Shown here piece by piece: positions 38,267 through 46,467 of a stretch of DNA of 64,000 nt. The notes below the pieces were generated by a model that was given only the letters and a program-made list of their open reading frames with translations, ran no database searches and was not told the origin of the DNA. How positions within the stretch are numbered: position 1 is the stretch's first letter; each line of letters starts with the position of its first letter. The stretch comes from an uncultured Candidatus Saccharibacteria bacterium (GTDB lineage Bacteria > Patescibacteriota > Saccharimonadia > Saccharimonadales > JACQNP01), in NCBI GenBank assembly GCA_964590725.1, contig CAZPWF010000003.1, forward strand, positions 1,649 through 65,648, in the 5' to 3' direction. The position numbers and the translations under genes are program-made.

Positions 38267-38992
38267 TTGATTGAAGTAAACGCAGTAAGCAAGGTGTACG
38301 GCAAGAAAGACAATCTCTTTATTGCTTTGAATGATATAAATCTGAAAATCCCAGATGGTGCTTCTGTCGCTATAGTTGGTAAGAGTGGAAGCGGTAAAAG
38401 TACGCTTATGCACGTAATGAGCGGGCTTGATCGTCCAGATGAAGGTCAAATTATTATTGATGGTAAAGACTTGCATAGTTTGAAACGACAAACCATGGAT
38501 AAGTTTCGGGCAGAAGAGATGAGTTTTATTTTTCAGGCGTTCTTTGTCGAGGCTAACCAATCTTGCTATCAAAACGTATCATTGCCGTTAGAGATTGCAG
38601 GAGTCCCTCGCAGGCGGCGTAGGACTATGGTTGAAAAGGCGCTAGGGCGTGTCGATCTTCTTGATAAAATAGATAGTAAAGCCAAGAATTTGTCTGGCGG
38701 CCAAAAACAACGTTTAGCAATTGCTCGGGCTATAGTTAATAAACCAAAGTATATTTTTGCTGATGAACCAACAGGAAATCTAGATACCGTAACAGGTCAA
38801 AAGGTCGAAGATCTTCTTTTCGAGCTAAATAAAAAATTAGGCTGTACATTATTTATTGTCACTCATGACGCTGAATTAGCTGCAAAGTGCAAGATACAGG
38901 TAAATATTAAAGACGGAAGTCTTGTCGAAAGCGAAAAGACAACTAAAAAAATAACCAAAACTGCCGCCAAGACCAAGAAGGGTAAGAAATAA
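38267..38992 (+). CDS. ABC transporter ATP-binding protein (MacB/LolD/FtsE-like)
   Basis: TTG start 6 nt after ggagg. Walker A (GKSGSGKST), signature (LSGGQKQR), Walker B ([11 protein letters not shown]), and an H-loop (VTHD). A Lys-rich tail follows. Confidence 0.9.
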
Positions 38993-40374
38993 TGAAGTTC
39001 ATGGATCTTATTAAGCGAGCTGGGCGGTCTTTGGCTACGGCGAAGGCACGAACGATTTTAACGGCTTTAGCTATTGCAGTTGGTGGTTTTACGCTAACAC
39101 TTACGATTGCGGCTAGTAATGGAGCTACACAATACGGCAACAAATTGATTAGTAGCAATTTTGACCCATCAGAGCTAATTGTTGGCCGCGATAAAGCAGT
39201 GTCCGGTGGCGCTGCAACATCGAGCAGCCCTCAAGAATATGATGAATCAATTGCTTCAGTAAGTGCGGGTGGTCCAAATGCAAAACTACAGGTTAAGCGT
39301 GTGTCGCAACAAGACGTTGAACAGCTTAGAAAGTTACCATTTATTGAGCAGGTCCGAGAAAATTACCAAATTGATATGCGATACGTTACAAGAGAAGGCC
39401 AGAAGAAATATACAGGAAGCTTACAAGCATACAATCCAGCACAAAAACCAGAAATGAAATCCGGTAATCTTCCGGTCGAAGGAGATATTTCACAAGGAAC
39501 TGTACTTCTACCTGACGCATATCTAGAGCCGCTGGGGCTTGGAACCGCTGAACAGGCTATAGGAAAGACAGTGACAGTTACGGTACAACAACCTTTTAAT
39601 ATTGACACGTTAAAAGGCTTAATTGGTGGACAGACAGGGGATTTGGGTTCTGTCGATCCTAATAGTTTAAAACCCAAAGAAATGAGCATGACTTTTAAGA
39701 TTGCTGGAGTAACAAAAAAACCCACCACAAGCCTAAATTTCGGCCTGTCACCAATGCTAATAAGTACTCCTGATGCTAAGCAGTTATACGATTTTACGCA
39801 AAAGGGTACATCCGATTATCAGAAATATTTGTTCGTATATGCGCGAGTAAAGGGTGGTCAAAACGAGGCGCAATTACTTGAAGCTCAAAAACAATTAATT
39901 GCACAAGGCTTTGAGGTTCAGAGCATAAAAGATGTTCAGAAGACAATTAATCAGTTTATTAATGTATTGCAGATAATTGTAACCGTTTTCGGTGTTATTA
40001 CTCTTATAGCGTCGGTATTTGGGGTTATAAATACGCAGTACATTAGTGTCTTAGAGAGAACCCGAGAAATAGGTCTTATGAAAGCTCTTGGTATGCGTCG
40101 ATCTGATGTTAGTAGACTATTTATTCTTGAAGCGACCTGGATAGGCTTTTTGGGCGGTATTATCGGCGCAATTTTAGCTTTTATATTGGGTGTCGTTATG
40201 AACCCATACATATCTAACAAATTAGACCTGGGAAGCGATAGGTTGTTGATATTTAAGCCGGTCCAAATAATTATCTTGATATTAATTTTGATGTTGATAG
40301 CAACACTAGCGGGCCTTTTGCCAGCACGTAAGGCTGCAAAACTTGATCCGATTGAAGCTCTAAGGACTGAATAA
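38992..40374 (+). CDS. ABC transporter permease, MacB/FtsX-type with a large periplasmic-type loop
   Basis: ATG overlaps the ATPase stop. TM1 is followed by a ~290-aa extracytoplasmic domain and then the FtsX-domain four-helix region (REIGLMKALGMRRSDV...). The C-terminus reads PARKAAKLDPIEALRTE. Confidence 0.86.
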   Translation: MKFMDLIKRAGRSLATAKARTILTALAIAVGGFTLTLTIAASNGATQYGNKLISSNFDPSELIVGRDKAVSGGAATSSSPQEYDESIASVSAGGPNAKLQVKRVSQQDVEQLRKLPFIEQVRENYQIDMRYVTREGQKKYTGSLQAYNPAQKPEMKSGNLPVEGDISQGTVLLPDAYLEPLGLGTAEQAIGKTVTVTVQQPFNIDTLKGLIGGQTGDLGSVDPNSLKPKEMSMTFKIAGVTKKPTTSLNFGLSPMLISTPDAKQLYDFTQKGTSDYQKYLFVYARVKGGQNEAQLLEAQKQLIAQGFEVQSIKDVQKTINQFINVLQIIVTVFGVITLIASVFGVINTQYISVLERTREIGLMKALGMRRSDVSRLFILEATWIGFLGGIIGAILAFILGVVMNPYISNKLDLGSDRLLIFKPVQIIILILILMLIATLAGLLPARKAAKLDPIEALRTE

Positions 40375-40392
40375 CTGATAGGAGAGTAGCTA

Positions 40393-40695
40393 GTGAAGGC
40401 AACTTGGAAAAATAATGTAATAGCAGAAGCTCCCAGAGAAGAGTTGATTTATATAGAGGGTAATTGGTACTTTCCTCCCTCACGAGTAAATATGGAATAT
40501 TTACAAAAAAGTGATACTCCGTATACCTGCCCCTGGAAGGGCGTCTGCCAATACTTTGATGTGTTGGCTGGCGACGAAAGCGCAAGAGATTGTGCCTGGT
40601 GCTACTCTGAGCCGTTACCCAACGCTATAGATCGAGTAAAAAAAGACTTTAGTAACTATATTGCTTTTTGGCGAGATGTAACGGTAGATGAGTAG
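40393..40695 (+). CDS. DUF427-family small protein
   Basis: 100 aa, GTG start after aggagag. Characteristic strings include VIAEAPREELIYIEGNWYFP...YTCPWKGVCQYFDV. Confidence 0.7.
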   Translation: MKATWKNNVIAEAPREELIYIEGNWYFPPSRVNMEYLQKSDTPYTCPWKGVCQYFDVLAGDESARDCAWCYSEPLPNAIDRVKKDFSNYIAFWRDVTVDE

Positions 40696-41220
40696 GTGGA
40701 AACAATAGTTTTAGGCGGGGGATGTTTCTGGTGTTTGGAAGCTAGTTATCAACTAGTGCGTGGAGTTGACGAAGCTTTACCTGGTTATGCTGGCGGGACA
40801 ACCCAAAATCCAACATATTACGATCTTCATGAAAACAACACCGGACATGCTGAAGTTGTGCAAGTAATGTTTGAACCTTCTGTTATTTCTTTAGATAATA
40901 TCCTGTAAATATTTTGGGTTATTCACGACCCAACCACTCTAAATAAACAGGGTAATGATATTGGATCAGAGTATAGATCAATTATTTTGTACAATAATGA
41001 CGAGCAGAGGGAGATAATTAATTCTTCAAAAGAAGCGGCGCAAAAACTCTGGGATAATCCAATTGTGACAGAAATAGAAAGGTTAAAAACATTTTACGAG
41101 GCCGAGCCAGAACACCATAACTATTTTAGGTTACATCCTGAACAAGCGTATTGTCAGATAGTCATAAACCCAAAGATTGCTAAGTTAAAATCGTCATTTA
41201 GCTCTAAGTTAAAAGATTAA
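40696..41220 (+). pseudogene. msrA: peptide methionine-S-sulfoxide reductase MsrA interrupted by one in-frame TAA (40906-40908)
   Basis: Tracked ORFs 40696-40908 and 40987-41220 are in the same frame. Reading through the stop gives a full-length MsrA: GGGCFWCLEA ... GYAGG...NPTY ... TGHAEVVQV...[29 protein letters not shown]... The stop occupies the position that is Glu in B. subtilis MsrA (..LLELFW..), so a single GAA->TAA change would explain it. Confidence 0.8.
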
Positions 41221-41897
41221 CGATAAATTTTTAATATCCCTAAACTTAAAAGATAGAATCCCAATATTAAGCAGCCCCATATTAGTATTGGTTTATAACT
41301 TCGATTCATTAACGGGTCAATTCTTTCTTCAATGTTTTTTATGGTTTCAGGTCTCTTTATGGAATATCCAATCATTCCTAAAAACGGGATCATCCCTACG
41401 CATATTGTCCAAAAAAGTCCAAGTAATACTACTAGATAGTTATCGGTCATGTCTTTAATTATTTTTGTTGCCGCAACAATCCCGATAATACTAGTAAAAC
41501 TAAGTGCTGATCTAAAAAAGGCAAACCAGAAAAGAGAGATGCCAGACATGTTTACAGAGTCAAGCTTTTTTGGATTTGAAGTTTTCGGGAAAAATCTAAG
41601 TCGAAGGCCGACGAGTACTAGAATTACTCCAAAAATTATATTTAGAATGGGTGATAAACGAATATCGTGACTAAATGATCTTACTTGTGTATTTTCGTTA
41701 AAAACAAACCCACCAACAATGGCAATTATAATTAAAGGAGTTGCTACGCCCGCAATAAGTATTATTGAGTTTAACAGTGGCCTTTTTGATTTTAGTATAA
41801 TTGCAAGCTCAGATACGAGCAGTAGAGGATTGAAGGCGACAAAAATTCCTAAAAAGGTTAGTTCGATTATTACGACTACAACCTGGAGTATATTCAT
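41217..41897 (-). CDS. hypothetical polytopic membrane protein (GAP/LysE-like topology)
   Basis: 226 aa with about 6 hydrophobic helices and no conserved Cys pair. It overlaps the msrA stop by 4 nt (convergent). The family assignment is only a guess. Confidence 0.55.
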   Translation of the reverse strand: MNILQVVVVIIELTFLGIFVAFNPLLLVSELAIILKSKRPLLNSIILIAGVATPLIIIAIVGGFVFNENTQVRSFSHDIRLSPILNIIFGVILVLVGLRLRFFPKTSNPKKLDSVNMSGISLFWFAFFRSALSFTSIIGIVAATKIIKDMTDNYLVVLLGLFWTICVGMIPFLGMIGYSIKRPETIKNIEERIDPLMNRSYKPILIWGCLILGFYLLSLGILKIYR

Positions 41898-41941
41898 TAA
41901 CTTATAGTAACGATTCGTTTATGGTAAGCCAAGAATTAATA

Positions 41942-41950
41942 TGTTAATGT
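41942..41950 (+). promoter_or_regulatory. extended -10 TGtTAATGT, 6 nt before the heliorhodopsin ATG
   Basis: tgttaatgt, then tttggt, then the ATG at 41957. Confidence 0.45.
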
Positions 41951-41956
41951 TTTGGT

Positions 41957-42760
41957 ATGACTACAAAATCAATCAAGAAAAAACCAATCACAATGGATAG
42001 CTTATATCGATTAAACGTCGGCGCGGCAATACTGCATGCGGCTCAAGGTATAGTTGTATTAATACTTGCAAAAGCATCAACCTTGCCGGTAACTACAAGT
42101 TTTCTAACTATCGATACGCTAACTAGTAAGCCAGGGCAGGCTCCTGTGCTTGTTCCAGGAACAAGCCAAGTGTTTAGTGTGAATTTGGCATACATTGTTG
42201 CCGCCTTCTTCTTTATGTCTGCAATTGCGCATACGGTTATTGCTACAGTTTATCGCAAACGTTATGAGGCAGATCTAAAGGTTGGGATTAATAAAGCGCG
42301 TTGGATTGAATATGCGATCAGTGCCAGTACTATGATGGTCGCTATAGGATTCTTGAGCGGTATTTATGATTTATCAAGTTTGATTATGATTTTTGCGCTC
42401 GATTTCATGATGAACATGATGGGGCTAGTTATGGAAGTTTCAAACAAGGGATCTAAAAAACCAAACTGGCTTAGCTATTGGTTGGGATGTTTTGCTGGTA
42501 TTGTCCCGTGGATTGTATTTGCGATATATGTTTGGGGTGCAAGCGTTTATGGAAGCGGTAATGTACCGACATTTGTATACTGGATTTACCTCAGTATCTT
42601 CATATTCTTTAATTGCTTTGCAATAAATATGTATTTGCAGTACAAAAAAATTGGAAAATGGGCGGATTATTTATACGGAGAACGAGTGTATATAATTCTT
42701 AGTCTTGTTGCGAAATCATTGTTGGCTTGGCAGGTATTTGCCGGCACACTACGCCCTTAA
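41957..42760 (+). CDS. heliorhodopsin (canonical, retinal-binding Lys present)
   Basis: 267 aa. It matches the heliorhodopsin prototype 48C12 (recalled from memory) along its whole length: ILHAAQGIVVL (His in TM1), SAIAHTVIA (His in TM3 region), RWIEYAISAS (counter-ion Glu118, codon 42308-42310), GCFAGIVPWIVFAIYV, and YLQYKKIGKWADYLYGERVYIILSLVAKSLLAWQVFAGTL (Schiff-base Lys253, AAA at 42713-42715). An extended -10 (tgttaatgt) ends 6 nt before the ATG. Confidence 0.9.
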   Translation: MTTKSIKKKPITMDSLYRLNVGAAILHAAQGIVVLILAKASTLPVTTSFLTIDTLTSKPGQAPVLVPGTSQVFSVNLAYIVAAFFFMSAIAHTVIATVYRKRYEADLKVGINKARWIEYAISASTMMVAIGFLSGIYDLSSLIMIFALDFMMNMMGLVMEVSNKGSKKPNWLSYWLGCFAGIVPWIVFAIYVWGASVYGSGNVPTFVYWIYLSIFIFFNCFAINMYLQYKKIGKWADYLYGERVYIILSLVAKSLLAWQVFAGTLRP

Positions 42761-42819
42761 TTTGCACCTCAAGTGACTCATCTGTGGCACCACGAGTTAA
42801 TGTGTGTTAAAGTTGTGCC

Positions 42820-43740
42820 ATGGCTACAACTACTAAGAAAACAACTAAGGCAAAAACCAAAACTGTAAAACCAAAGACCTCAACGGCAAAAACTTCAACA
42901 ACTAAATCTGTCAAAAAATCTGTTACCAAAAAACCAACCATTAAGGCTGTAGAAGTAAAATCTAATCCAGTCGCCCCAGTCAATGTATTGCAAAAAATTT
43001 ATGCAATTAGTATTGCGGTTTATGTGGCAATTGCTGGCGCAGCCTACTTTTTAATGAGTAACGCAAGCTATCAATTAAGTATCGGCTATTGGACGAAAGA
43101 CGCGCTTGCAAGCGCTAATAGCACGGTGTTCGCAGCAGGCTCACAAGGATTAGTTGATGTTCAGGTTAAGTGGATTGTAATGACGGTAGCTCTGCTTTCA
43201 ATCGTTATGCCAGTACTGTATTTAACTAAATTGAAAGATTATCACCAGAAAAGTATGAAAGCTAAAGTACTACCAACTCGTTGGTTAGACATGGCTGTGG
43301 TGGCAGCAATTATGATTGAGGCAGTTGCAATTGTAAGTGGAGTGCTCGATATCGGTACCTTAAAGCTTGTTGGTGGTCTAATGGTTGTAACTTGTATTCT
43401 TGGTTGGATGGCCGAAAAGAGAACTGCAGAAGCAGGTAAGCCAGCGACAGCCAAATACTATTTGAGTATGCTAACTGGGCTATTACCATGGGTATTAATT
43501 GGATTATATGCAATTGCAACACCGCTATATGGTGAAGTTCGCTCACCTTGGTTTGTTTATGCTCTTTACGCAGTTATGTTGATCGGTGCCGGTATTGTAG
43601 GTAGCAATCAACTCAAAGGTCTTAAGGGCCAGGGTAAGTACGCTAGTTTTGGCTACATTGAAAAGAATTATGCAGTCAGTAGCCTTGTTATAAGAACTAT
43701 GTTTGCTGCTGTATTGATTATTGGCTTGATGGCTAAATAA
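42820..43740 (+). CDS. heliorhodopsin-like paralogue lacking the retinal Lys (Arg292), with a Lys/Thr-rich N-terminal tail
   Basis: 306 aa, collinear with the upstream heliorhodopsin:
- RWLDMAVVAAIM vs RWIEYAISASTM (Glu -> Asp157)
- LLPWVLIGLYAIA vs IVPWIVFAIYVWG
- KGQGKYASFGYIEKNYAVSSLVIRTMFAA vs KKIGKWADYLYGERVYIILSLVAKSLLAW (Lys -> Arg, AGA at 43693-43695)
Both conserved His positions are also lost. The first 48 residues contain 15 Lys and 16 Thr/Ser (MATTTKKTTKAKTKTVKPKTSTAKTSTTKSVKKSVTKKPTIK). Confidence 0.75.
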   Translation: MATTTKKTTKAKTKTVKPKTSTAKTSTTKSVKKSVTKKPTIKAVEVKSNPVAPVNVLQKIYAISIAVYVAIAGAAYFLMSNASYQLSIGYWTKDALASANSTVFAAGSQGLVDVQVKWIVMTVALLSIVMPVLYLTKLKDYHQKSMKAKVLPTRWLDMAVVAAIMIEAVAIVSGVLDIGTLKLVGGLMVVTCILGWMAEKRTAEAGKPATAKYYLSMLTGLLPWVLIGLYAIATPLYGEVRSPWFVYALYAVMLIGAGIVGSNQLKGLKGQGKYASFGYIEKNYAVSSLVIRTMFAAVLIIGLMAK

Positions 43741-43751
43741 TTACAACTGAA

Positions 43752-44999
43752 ATGCTTGAAACTGTAAAAATTACTAAGCTCGTTCATGGTGGGCAAGGTC
43801 TTGGTATATTATCTGACGGACGTAAAGTTTTTGTTTGGAACGCTTTACCTGGCGAGCTAGTTAAGATTCAAATTACTAAGAAACGTAAGGATTATTGCGA
43901 AGCCATTAGTCAAGAAATTATAGAAGCATCATCCGAAAGAATTAAGCCGCTGGATGAAGCTTTTATGAGTACTAGCCCTTGGCAGGTCATGTCTTATGAA
44001 GCTGAGAATAAATACAAACAACAAGTATTAACTGAAACTATGTCTCGTGAAAAGGTGGATTGGAAAAAGGAAATAAATCTTTATTCGGACGACCGCCAAT
44101 GGCATTATCGAAACAAAATGGAATATAGCTTTTGGGCGGATGATAATGGTTTACATTTGGCTCTTTTTCATCGCGGAAGTCACGGTAAACAGATAGTGCC
44201 TGGCAGTAGTATTGCCCGACCAGAAATAGATGCCGCAGCTCATGAAGCACTAGACGTATTAGTTGCTAACGGGGTTCGAGGTAGCCAGTTAAAAACCTTG
44301 ATACTTAGATGCAATCAAGAAGGTGATGTTGTAATGGCATTATTCGTAAAAGACGAAAAATTTCCTAAGATTCAAGGACTCAAATCGATAGCACAAGGAA
44401 TAACAGTTTGTTATTCAACCCCAAAAAGTCCAGCCAGCGTTATCACAAAAAAACTATATACATATGGCGACACTTCCATGACTGACATGATCATGGGTGT
44501 GAATATAAATTATGATGTTCATTCTTTTTTTCAGGTTAATGTGCCAGTGTTTGAAAATGCATTGAAACGGATTGATCATTTTACAGCCGGAGCTGACAAT
44601 AAAATTGATCTATATTGTGGCGTCGGTACCATAGGCGTCGCCATAGGCAATACTAAAAAATTTATAGAGATTGATAAAATAAATTGCGAGTATGCACGTA
44701 TAAATGCCGGTTCGGATGCGAAAATTATTCAAGCAAGTTCTGAACAAGCCTTAGATCATATTGACCCTGACAGTACATTGATAGTTGATCCACCTAGAGC
44801 TGGCTTGCACGCAAAGCTGATCGATCGAATTTTAGAAGCAAAACCAAAAATGGTTGCATATCTTAGTTGTAACCCAAGTACGCAGGCACGAGACATTGCC
44901 TTGCTGCAGTTAGGATATAAACTAAAAACGATCGAGGGTTATAATTTTTTTCCTAGAACTCCACATATTGAGAGTTTAGCTGTTATGATAAAGAAATGA
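43752..44999 (+). CDS. RNA (uracil-5-)-methyltransferase, RlmD/RumA/TrmA family
   Basis: TRAM-like N-terminus (VKITKLVHGGQGLG...GELVKIQI), SAM motif (DLYCGVGTIGVAIG), DPPRAGL, and the catalytic Cys context (YLSCNPSTQARD). The substrate (23S rRNA vs tRNA) cannot be determined by eye. Confidence 0.8.
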   Translation: MLETVKITKLVHGGQGLGILSDGRKVFVWNALPGELVKIQITKKRKDYCEAISQEIIEASSERIKPLDEAFMSTSPWQVMSYEAENKYKQQVLTETMSREKVDWKKEINLYSDDRQWHYRNKMEYSFWADDNGLHLALFHRGSHGKQIVPGSSIARPEIDAAAHEALDVLVANGVRGSQLKTLILRCNQEGDVVMALFVKDEKFPKIQGLKSIAQGITVCYSTPKSPASVITKKLYTYGDTSMTDMIMGVNINYDVHSFFQVNVPVFENALKRIDHFTAGADNKIDLYCGVGTIGVAIGNTKKFIEIDKINCEYARINAGSDAKIIQASSEQALDHIDPDSTLIVDPPRAGLHAKLIDRILEAKPKMVAYLSCNPSTQARDIALLQLGYKLKTIEGYNFFPRTPHIESLAVMIKK

Positions 45000-45682
45000 G
45001 ATTGCACAGATTTTATGTCGGCGATGAGGTTGAGTTAAAACATGACTTTTGGTTGCACGACGTAGGTTTATTAAACCAGTGGCGACGAGTATTACGTTAT
45101 CAGGTTGGCCAAGAATTAGTGTTATTTGATGGCATAAATGAGGATCGACTCTATAAAATTACTCTTTTGACCGAAAAAGAAGCGCATCTTGAAATGGTTA
45201 CAGAATTAAAAAGGCAAATTCCAAAAAGAGACATATACCTCTTCTGGTCTTTGTTAAAGAAAGACAAGAATGACTGGGTTCTACAAAAATGCACTGAACT
45301 TGGCGTGAGTCACTTTGTTCCGTTAATTGCTGATCGATCGGAAAAAACTGGTTTTAATGTAGAGCGAGCTCAGAAGATTATCATAGAGGCGGCAGAGCAG
45401 TGTGGTCGAAGTGATATTCCGTCTGTAAGAGAGCCAATTCTTGTCGAAACCGCACTTACTGAGTTTGATGGTAAGCTACGGTTATTTATTTGCGAACAGT
45501 CACAAGACGGGAAATTGTGCGATATTGACCAAGCAGGCTTACTGATTGGTCCTGAGGGTGGATGGTCGGAAAATGAAAGAAATATATTCAAACAACACGA
45601 TTTGGCTCACGTTAATCTTCATGATTTTACGCTTCGTGCCGAAACCGCATGCGTTGCCGGCGCCACGTTACTGCTACAATAA
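44996..45682 (+). CDS. rsmE: 16S rRNA (uracil1498-N3)-methyltransferase RsmE
   Basis: MRLHRFYV N-terminus (PUA-like), then a SPOUT C-domain with LIGPEGGWSENE and LRAETA. The ATGA start overlaps the upstream gene. Confidence 0.85.
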   Translation: MRLHRFYVGDEVELKHDFWLHDVGLLNQWRRVLRYQVGQELVLFDGINEDRLYKITLLTEKEAHLEMVTELKRQIPKRDIYLFWSLLKKDKNDWVLQKCTELGVSHFVPLIADRSEKTGFNVERAQKIIIEAAEQCGRSDIPSVREPILVETALTEFDGKLRLFICEQSQDGKLCDIDQAGLLIGPEGGWSENERNIFKQHDLAHVNLHDFTLRAETACVAGATLLLQ

Positions 45683-45687
45683 ATATA

Positions 45688-46467
45688 ATGGCAACAAATT
45701 ATTGGCAAACCAGGAATAAACCTTACGAAGTAGGGCAAAAAGCGCCTTTTAAAGTTAGTCGAAGCAAAATAGAGCTATTTACTCAGTGCCCCAGGTGCTT
45801 TTGGTTAGACGTGCGTTTGAAGATAAAACGTCCCAGTGGTCCACCATTCAATATCAATAAGACGATAGATGAACTGTATAAAAAAGAGTTCGATATTCAT
45901 CGTGCAAGCAAAACTCCACATCCTATTATGATTGATAATCAGATCAAGGCAGTACCAATGCAGCATGAAAATATGGATCAGTGGCGCCATAATTTTACGG
46001 GGGTCACAGCACTTCACAAGCCGACAAATTTGCACGTATTTGGTGCGATTGACGATTTGTGGGTTGATGATGACGGTAACGCTATTGTTGTAGACTACAA
46101 AGCAACCTCAAAAGACAAAGAGGTGTCGATAGATTCAGATTGGCAGATTAGCTACAAAAGACAACTCGAAGTATATCAGTGGCTGCTTCGTCAAAATGAT
46201 TTATCTGTGAGTGACATCGGCTACTTTGTCTACACAAATGCTCGGATGGATTTAGACGGATTTAACGATCGACTAGAATTCCGAACCAAACTTATTCCGT
46301 ATCAAGGTAACGATTCTTGGGTTGAGCAAACGCTAAAAAATATGAAGAACTGTATGGACGGGGAAATCCCAGAAGTAGGGACTGCCGCAATGGGGGGCGA
46401 ATGTGATTATTGCTCATATGCTAGAGATCGAACTAGGTTGACTTTGCAGCATTTAAACAAGGCCTAA
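45688..46467 (+). CDS. PD-(D/E)XK nuclease, Cas4/RecB-like, with CxxC...CxxC
   Basis: I chose the start at MATNYWQ (ATG 45688, 5 nt after the rsmE stop). N-terminal FTQCPRCFWL, core (GAIDDLWVDDDGNAIVVDYKATSK, i.e. D...D-x-K), QLEVYQWLL, and a C-terminal GGECDYCSYA. Confidence 0.7.
   Translation: MATNYWQTRNKPYEVGQKAPFKVSRSKIELFTQCPRCFWLDVRLKIKRPSGPPFNINKTIDELYKKEFDIHRASKTPHPIMIDNQIKAVPMQHENMDQWRHNFTGVTALHKPTNLHVFGAIDDLWVDDDGNAIVVDYKATSKDKEVSIDSDWQISYKRQLEVYQWLLRQNDLSVSDIGYFVYTNARMDLDGFNDRLEFRTKLIPYQGNDSWVEQTLKNMKNCMDGEIPEVGTAAMGGECDYCSYARDRTRLTLQHLNKA

Follow-up and report, generated by a model that had tools for sequence, protein, structure and literature searches.

Introduction

Proteins that derive from rhodopsins and lack the lysine to which retinal is bound are known among the type-1 rhodopsins, namely the Rh-noK proteins, the haloarchaeal opsins and the FArhodopsins (PMC10308929, PMC7714340). 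Within the heliorhodopsins (HeRs), the role of most of which is still unsettled, a lysine-less lineage appears to be undescribed; like the first-pass annotation of the DNA analyzed here, which knew of no such protein, we found none in a full-text literature search of incomplete coverage. Here, we analyze a 64,000-nt stretch of DNA from an uncultured Saccharibacteria bacterium (the window, positions 1-64000; all coordinates are window positions), in which a gene for a canonical HeR, called g1, is followed 59 nt downstream and on the same strand by g2, which encodes a protein of the HeR fold with an arginine in place of the Schiff-base lysine. Our overall conclusion, drawn from comparisons of sequences, is that g2 represents a selected and recurrent lysine-to-arginine HeR lineage that occupies an ancestral slot in Saccharimonadia genomes and that lies here, by accident, beside a canonical HeR.

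Rh-noK of marine betaproteobacteria resembles g2 in lacking the retinal lysine, in its presumed retinal-free function and, as far as this window is concerned, in adjoining a gene for a lysine-bearing rhodopsin (PMC10308929, PMC7714340). However, Rh-noK is a type-1 protein of the opposite topology, and its tandem with proteorhodopsin is described as characteristic, whereas the tandem of g2 occurs in one of 14 loci; moreover, the replacement in g2 is specifically arginine and is coupled to the counter-ion. The FArhodopsins and haloarchaeal opsins (PMC10308929; bioRxiv 10.1101/2025.04.29.651185) are likewise conserved rhodopsin paralogues or derivatives that are lysine-less or do not bind retinal and that lie in a conserved neighborhood, and in freshwater FArhodopsins the lysine is replaced by Q, T, L or R (PMC10308929). 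Unlike g2, they are flotillin-linked type-1 proteins of Proteobacteria or Halobacteria, for which neither a polycationic tail nor an msrA/rlmD context has been reported. Approximately 600 Rh-noK genes have been counted by one source among 5,558 rhodopsin genes "including HeRs", the HeR share not being specified (PMC10308929 or PMC7714340). Large HeR surveys demand the helix-7 lysine or the SxxxK motif (PMC8612252, PMC9601134, PMC9166423), and lysine-less HeRs would therefore be discarded by them.

The canonical HeRs 48C12 and TaHeR (PF18761, Kovalev subfamily 1) are similar to g2 in fold, in the AB beta-hairpin and in the topology with the N-terminus inside. In the numbering of 48C12, which is used for all residue comparisons (K241 is the Schiff-base lysine and E107 the counter-ion), g2 keeps R104, W105, S76, E149, P172, W173, E230, Y233, S237 and the D127/Y179 pair. 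It differs from these proteins by arginine for the Schiff-base lysine and, as a conservative change, aspartate for the glutamate counter-ion; by His23 to Tyr, His80 to Pro, Tyr92 to His, Asn16 to Tyr and Phe206 to Ala; by a buried Glu167 together with Lys182 (g2 numbering) in the extracellular half, where hydrophobic residues are the rule; by a 55-residue tail; and by a score below the NCBIfam cut-off. Closer still are the lysine-bearing members of its own subfamily (P0026 and P0034; 42-47% identity), which have the slot, the tail motif, Pro80, Asp107 and the E167, K182 and R241 of g2 in common with it, but keep the lysine and have Phe at position 23, where the arginine clade has Tyr. The features on which the comparison rests are as follows.

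41957..42760, + strand: g1, canonical heliorhodopsin, 267 aa; counter-ion E118, Schiff-base lysine K253 and both histidines present
42820..43740, + strand: g2, HeR-fold protein with arginine for the Schiff-base lysine, 306 aa; identified by PF18761 (98.4 bits), AlphaFold2 model, orthology and synteny
43288..43290, + strand: Asp157 codon GAC of g2, equivalent of Glu107 of 48C12 by the alignments; proposed ion-pair partner of Arg292
43693..43695, + strand: Arg292 codon AGA of g2, equivalent of K241 of 48C12 by three alignments; invariant in the arginine clade

Results

g2 has the heliorhodopsin fold and arginine at the Schiff-base position

The two proteins were compared with the Pfam profile PF18761 (gathering score 26.7) and with the NCBIfam equivalog NF038020, "heliorhodopsin HeR" (cut-off 100 bits). 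The description of g1 as a textbook heliorhodopsin is fully justified; it scored 313.7 and 312.5 bits, respectively, and all canonical residues are present (N16, H23, H80, Y92, R104, E107, F206, S237 and K241). Its N-terminus is short and lysine-rich (MTTKSIKKKPITMD). g2 also passed PF18761, with 98.4 bits over profile positions 3-240 of 242, and fell slightly under the NCBIfam cut-off with 93.2 bits, the lysine-bearing siblings reaching 115.2 and 118.8 bits. This shortfall of g2 may be the reason that two of its arginine-type relatives bear the NCBI name "hypothetical protein".

The correspondence of Arg292 to the Schiff-base lysine and of Asp157 to Glu107 was the same in three independent alignments: BLASTP against g1, phmmer against the solved chains of 48C12 and TaHeR, and MAFFT with about 100 relatives. 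These alignments bear out the earlier reading of g2 as an HeR-family protein in which lysine has become arginine, glutamate has become aspartate and both histidines have been lost (H23 to Tyr68, H80 to Pro131). The helix-7 motif is SLVIR, without the retinal lysine of SxxxK, and, besides R292, the only charges in mid-membrane are D157 and E167. Another lysine of g2 serving as the Schiff-base residue was rejected: all of them lie in loops or at helix ends, and none lines the pocket. K182 in particular was dismissed as a substitute, being nearly invariant in lysine-bearing relatives as well.

An AlphaFold2 model of g2 built from 69 relatives (mean predicted local distance difference test score, pLDDT, 88.1; predicted template modeling score 0.78) displays seven transmembrane (TM) helices and the AB beta-hairpin, with strands at residues 83-93 and 104-115. 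When the model was submitted to Foldseek, the ten best PDB matches were all HeRs, with TM-scores normalized to target of 0.83-0.90 (0.86-0.90 for 6is6, 7u55 and 6su3) and root-mean-square deviations (rmsd) of mostly 2.1-2.9 Å. By contrast, type-1 rhodopsin structures gave TM-scores normalized to target of ≤0.73, nearly all with rmsd >6 Å, and g2 matched none of the type-1 rhodopsin Pfam families. By our own tally, g2 has approximately 30 Lys/Arg residues in the tail and in loops 2-3, 4-5 and 6-7, the side predicted to be cytoplasmic, and 5 outside; by the positive-inside rule, we infer the inverted topology with a cytoplasmic N-terminus, which agrees with the previous suggestion that the tail faces the cytoplasm.

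The arginine clade belongs to an old subfamily and is under selection, and its replacement recurs

Searching 5.8 billion proteins with g2 yielded 99 clusters. The closest 23, which are 54-100% identical to g2, all have arginine at the Schiff-base position; the next ~60 (31-47% identity; ~300 aa) nearly all have lysine and have in common with g2 Phe/Tyr at position 23, Pro at 80 and mostly Asp at 107; the final dozen are canonical HeRs. Buried Glu167 in TM3, Lys182 and Arg241 (g2 numbering) are signatures of the whole subfamily that are absent from canonical HeRs. When 1.84 billion cluster representatives were scanned exhaustively with phmmer, 603 relatives were obtained at E ≤ 1e-3, 87 of them at E ≤ 1e-30, and the Schiff-base column of the best 150 of these 603, together with three references, contained K in 113 sequences, R in 20 and a neutral residue in 18. 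Because of this census, lysine-less proteins are judged to be common in the divergent HeR branch, where they account for roughly one in four clusters at 50% identity.

In a neighbor-joining tree computed on 247 core columns, the arginine clade is monophyletic (22 sequences), and at least five further arginine lineages (P0030, P0066, P0069/P0076, P0075 and P0090) are nested among lysine-bearing ones; the change from lysine to arginine is a single transition and the recurrent replacement. By identity, tree and gene order, g2 is placed as the local orthologue of an old divergent HeR subfamily that is vertically inherited in Saccharimonadia, and not as a degraded copy of g1. The view of the first-pass annotation, that g2 is a paralogue that had lost the lysine, could not be upheld: g2 is 24% identical to g1, and the divergent subfamily of which it is an orthologue mostly keeps its lysine. 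A recent tandem duplication of g1 was rejected on the same identity value and because the two proteins belong to different subfamilies.

The core of the arginine clade differs at far fewer nonsynonymous than synonymous sites (proportions pN 0.09-0.23 versus pS 0.70-0.83, the latter saturated), and 66 columns, R292 included, are invariant across 21 of its sequences; these values indicate that the arginine-type gene is under purifying selection. Arg292 is not a product of chance or error, because all 23 cluster representatives with 54-100% identity to g2 have it, and the change must be older than the presence of g1 in the slot, because orthologues without g1 have arginine as well. The changes specific to the clade (N16 to Y, 23 to Y, Y92 to H, F206 to A/G, Q216 to S/A/G and L227 to E) are concentrated around the pocket and what was once the cavity of the Schiff base, and the structural core and the D127/Y179 dimer contacts are kept.

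The signature residues of the divergent subfamily lie at 43318-43320 (E167, a buried glutamate in the extracellular half of TM3), 43363-43365 (K182, at the start of TM4) and 43540-43542 (R241, in the TM5-TM6 loop). The set is found throughout the divergent subfamily, the same half being fully hydrophobic in canonical HeRs, and may point to a different activity such as an ion pathway.

Arginine is coupled to the former counter-ion

Asp or Glu is present at position 107 in 45 of 47 sequences with R241 and in 3 of 18 sequences with a neutral residue at 241 (Fisher p = 5e-10, not corrected for phylogeny). Sequences with K241 have an acid at 107 in 142 of 174 cases, and 21 of the 32 exceptions have Asp or Glu at 237. 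In other lineages, in which the lysine has become V, L, Q, T or A, the counter-ion was lost too. From this covariation we conclude that the buried cation and the carboxylate travel together.

Many lysine-bearing members of the divergent branch have DxxxK in helix 7 (Asp at 237) and no acid at the counter-ion position in TM3 (P0260, P0261, P0284, P0286, P0287, P0289, P0292, P0310, P0318, P0324, P0325, P0327, P0330, P0338, P0339, P0355 and P0361). This motif, which is like that of type-1 rhodopsins, suggests a displacement of the counter-ion within the heliorhodopsins.

The slot is shared by alternative HeRs and the tandem is unique

Related loci were fetched (20 in total, L001-L020) and viewed over ±3-10 kb around each orthologue. 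Thirteen of these are independent: seven arginine-type loci (L001, L002, L004, L006, L007, L012 and L019), two lysine-type loci of the divergent subfamily (L013 and L014, with members P0026 and P0034) and four canonical loci (L015 to L018), in which relatives of g1 (69-74% identity) fill the msrA-HeR-rlmD slot singly; with the window, the comparison comprises 14 loci. The neighbors of the pair in the window are as follows.

40696..41220, + strand: msrA, peptide methionine sulfoxide reductase, by translation; in-frame TAA at 40906-40908
41217..41897, - strand: SfLAP-family membrane protein (Pfam PF11139, 53.4 bits), variable slot gene
43752..44999, + strand: RlmD/RumA-like RNA (uracil-5)-methyltransferase, by Pfam TRAM and tRNA_U5-meth_tr and by synteny

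All 13 independent loci, whether arginine-type, lysine-type divergent or canonical, keep the same order of genes: (ABC/MacB) ... msrA, 0-2 variable genes, HeR, rlmD/rumA-like, rsmE, PD-(D/E)XK, serS, hpf and secA. The peptide methionine sulfoxide reductase gene is upstream of the HeR gene in all 13, either adjacent or one or two variable genes away. Unexpectedly, canonical and divergent HeRs thus occupy this slot as alternatives to each other, and by its synteny we take it to be the HeR locus that is ancestral in Saccharimonadia.

A tblastn search with g1 and the core of g2 detected exactly one HeR gene in each of the 20 fetched loci. Accordingly, the tandem is unique to the window among the 14 loci (0 of 13 others), arginine-type genes are single in 7 of 7 arginine-type loci, and the g1-g2 pair is, by this comparison, not a conserved two-component photosensor, an outcome that the first-pass annotation had itself named as counting against its model. 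Four short metagenome contigs (≤2.3 kb) retrieved with an alignment of the arginine clade contained no g1-type sequence just upstream. In the closest arginine-type loci, L001 and L019/L020 (75-78% identical), a divergently oriented SfLAP gene directly abuts the g2 orthologue and g1 is missing; a SfLAP gene in this arrangement is present in L001, L004, L019 and L020. Furthermore, the RumA, RsmE and DUF427 neighbors in the window are most similar to those at arginine-type loci. Because the closest arginine-type loci lack g1 and the flanks of the window resemble arginine-type loci, g1 is regarded as an extra gene within an arginine-type lineage. It is a second, canonical and presumably light-sensing HeR that shares the slot in this one genome, and it came either by recombination from a related genome or as the sole survivor of an ancient tandem; GC content gave no sign of a foreign origin of g1, and base composition does not separate the two origins.

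The reading frame of msrA in the window is intact on either side of the stop (…SLDNIL*IFWVIHDPT…), and the gene is intact in all related loci, so the stop marks either a gene that has only recently been inactivated or a mistake in sequencing or assembly. The RlmD/RumA-like protein scored 179.9 bits on NCBIfam rumA, slightly below the cut-off of 183.55; since its gene begins only 11 nt after g2, the two are probably co-transcribed. Over a longer range (L001-L020; window 38992-46467), the highly conserved order in Saccharimonadia is proS, greA, aspS/lysS, (ABC-MacB), (DUF427), msrA, HeR, rlmD-like, rsmE, PD-(D/E)XK, serS, hpf, secA, M16 peptidase and prfA, and the vicinity of the HeR gene is a hot spot of variable genes (SfLAP, sortase, HAD hydrolase, Orn/DAP decarboxylase and unknowns). 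The whole 64-kb window contained no tRNA gene detectable with ARAGORN and no Rfam family at the gathering threshold.

The polycationic tail is ancestral

42820..42984, + strand: N-terminal tail of g2, residues 1-55; 15 Lys, 19 Ser/Thr and 1 acidic residue; disordered

The tail of g2 begins with MATTTKKtTKAKTKT, the form in the subfamily being MATT(T)KKSTKAKTKT, and its residues 1-53 are predicted to be disordered (pLDDT 52-60 in the AlphaFold2 model). Tails with the MATTTKKSTKAKTKT start are conserved across the divergent subfamily in lysine- and arginine-type proteins alike, and the motif is also present in the canonical-motif HeRs P0088 to P0099; canonical g1-type HeRs of Saccharimonadia have lysine-rich tails of 14-60 residues of the MAKKSTSKKPAKSAKT kind, that of g1 being short. 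The tail is therefore judged to be a trait of Saccharimonadia HeRs that is not linked to the loss of the lysine. The proposal that g2 had gained a histone-like tail when the lysine was lost was thus rejected, the tail being ancestral, widespread and carried by lysine-bearing HeRs of the same class as well.

The ratio of nonsynonymous to synonymous substitution rates (dN/dS) in the tail is ~0.1-0.5, and since third-codon positions vary, the constraint is largely on the protein. The lysine-rich segment is the only one of its kind in the window, and within 273 kb of related DNA the KAKTKT motif was confined to the N-termini of g2-family genes. When the consensus peptide of the tail was used as a homology query, 21 candidates came up, none of them scoring. 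The partner of the tail could be an anionic lipid, RNA or the ribosome, or a protein; the ribosome-binding tails of Oxa1 and YidC2 offer an analogy. A short Lys/Thr-rich C-terminal tail resembling those of the HeRs (…SVSKPKTKTTTRKKAGAKS) was seen on an ABC-transporter ATPase encoded upstream of the slot, at 370-1119 of L001.

Each HeR gene is preceded by a promoter-like box

41942..41950, + strand: TGtTAATGT, putative extended -10-like box, ending 6 nt before the ATG of g1
42805..42813, + strand: TGtTAAAGT, putative extended -10-like box, ending 6 nt before the ATG of g2

Boxes of the TGnTAnAGT type were spotted by eye in aligned upstream regions. A sequence similar to the box of g1 is present in the same geometry upstream of the g1-type genes of L015, L017 and L018, and the g2-type box, TGnTAAAGT or TGnTATAGT, lies at the same distance in L001, L004, L006, L012, L014 and L019, that is, before orthologues that have no g1 beside them. 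The form TGnTA(A/T)(A/T)GT, 6-8 nt before the ATG, is common to both types of HeR. No Shine-Dalgarno sequence was found upstream of g1 or g2. This arrangement suggests that the boxes are extended -10 promoters giving leaderless mRNAs, and each HeR gene would thus have its own promoter. A scan with the sigma-70 consensus found promoter-like sites no more often than in shuffled sequence. Because there is no terminator-like site between g1 and g2 (terminator-like matches fall inside genes), read-through from g1 into g2 is possible.

Discussion

We consider it somewhat more probable than the contrary (roughly 55%) that g2 is a stand-alone, light-independent protein that works without retinal and contains an ion pair between Arg292 and Asp157. 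In this proposal, which is based on sequence and a predicted structure, the guanidinium group of Arg292 would take the place of the protonated Schiff base and pair permanently with the former counter-ion Asp157. The Arg-Asp pair would hold the seven-helix bundle in one fixed, light-insensitive state without retinal, and g2 would carry out constitutively the non-photochemical job of its subfamily. Such a constitutive job seems most likely because g2 retains the other conserved features of the subfamily, namely R154/W155, E199, P223/W224, E281/Y284, the D177/Y230 dimer contacts, the cytoplasmic loops and the tail. Saccharibacteria lack blh and rely on external retinal (PMC9296517), and because they cannot make retinal and have to obtain it from hosts, a repeated escape from dependence on it is plausible.

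The cellular role of g2 is proposed with much lower confidence. By analogy with characterized HeRs, which are reported to bind and regulate enzymes (PMC9529153, PMC9769723), the job might consist of binding or regulating a cytoplasmic partner via the loops and the tail, and the linkage to msrA hints at the repair of oxidative damage. A literature search of incomplete coverage found no paper that ties HeRs to MsrA.

Several points weigh against this interpretation of g2. The covariation counts for positions 241 and 107 are not phylogenetically independent. Most positions of the retinal pocket are kept in the arginine clade (S76, M115, P172, W173, Q213 and S237), F206 to Ala/Gly being the only pocket change that stands out. 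The count of one HeR per locus covers the ±3-10 kb that were viewed, and a canonical HeR or a type-1 rhodopsin may be encoded elsewhere in arginine-type genomes. As for the role, the link to msrA rests on gene order in small, highly syntenic genomes, which is weak evidence.

The preserved pocket would also suit a protein that binds retinal, a carotenoid or a lipid non-covalently, or that holds or scavenges host retinal for true rhodopsins, and that is still related to light. The residues kept in the arginine clade include W224 (the equivalent of W173), P223, M165, Y213, Q264, S127 and S288; moreover, Saccharibacteria must import retinal, and HeRs take it up quickly through a lateral opening (PMC9296517). 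We nevertheless regard this explanation as unlikely. The change of F206 to Ala/Gly speaks against it, and the recurrence of arginine with the carboxylate retained is what one would expect of an ion pair with a structural task rather than of an attachment site left empty. Other lineages, in which V, L, Q, T or A has replaced the lysine, lost the counter-ion too. To our knowledge, moreover, no HeR has been described in which retinal is bound functionally without a covalent link.

The first-pass annotation had proposed a hetero-oligomer in which g1 senses light and g2, without a chromophore, serves as adaptor or transducer, its tail relaying the signal to a cytoplasmic polyanion. The genes are indeed adjacent, on the same strand and 59 nt apart without a terminator-like site between them, and both proteins have retained counterparts of D127 and Y179, polar dimer contacts that were defined previously (PMC7049168), D138/Y191 in g1 and D177/Y230 in g2; among type-1 rhodopsins, a regulatory multimer has been suggested for Rh-noK in tandem with proteorhodopsin (PMC10308929). 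However, a sensor-adaptor pair is difficult to reconcile with the absence of the tandem from all 13 independent related loci, each with one HeR, with single arginine-type genes at seven loci, the closest of which (L001 and L019) have the minus-strand SfLAP gene and g2 without g1, and with a slot of which the two types are alternative occupants. The gene g2 also has its own conserved promoter-like box, separate from that of g1; the tail is older than the loss of the lysine and is present on lysine-bearing HeRs too; and two proteins that are only 24% identical would not be expected to have a hydrophobic interface in common. A g1-g2 heterodimer is possible in this one organism, but as an account of what g2 does we think the hetero-oligomer quite improbable. 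That g2 is simply a decaying pseudogene, made redundant by the arrival of g1, might be suspected from its altered photochemical residues, from the in-frame stop in the adjoining msrA and from a score slightly below the NCBIfam HeR cut-off. This idea, which we give hardly any credence, is effectively refuted by conservation: the open reading frame is intact, arginine is present in all 23 cluster representatives, even in those with as little as 54% identity, pN is far under the saturated pS, the AlphaFold2 model is confident and the change from lysine to arginine predates g1, since orthologues without g1 have arginine.

A broader proposal, which we hold only tentatively and at somewhat less than even odds, is that HeRs in general have a light-independent core function and that retinal-free "HeR-noK" proteins, which carry out this function constitutively, arose repeatedly in bacteria of the candidate phyla radiation. 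Two routes to such proteins may be envisaged: the replacement of lysine by arginine, in which an Arg-carboxylate pair would mimic the original charge pair, or the loss of both charges. The presence of a conserved, selected lysine-to-arginine clade in a bona fide HeR slot, the independent recurrence of the replacement and the coupling of the arginine to the counter-ion suggest that the scaffold has a job independent of light and that the two opposite charges at the Schiff-base site matter to the structure in their own right. If this is true, the arginine-type proteins would be natural "locked-state" mutants with which the partner and function of heliorhodopsins, and the role of the MATTTKKSTKAKTKT tail, may be found.

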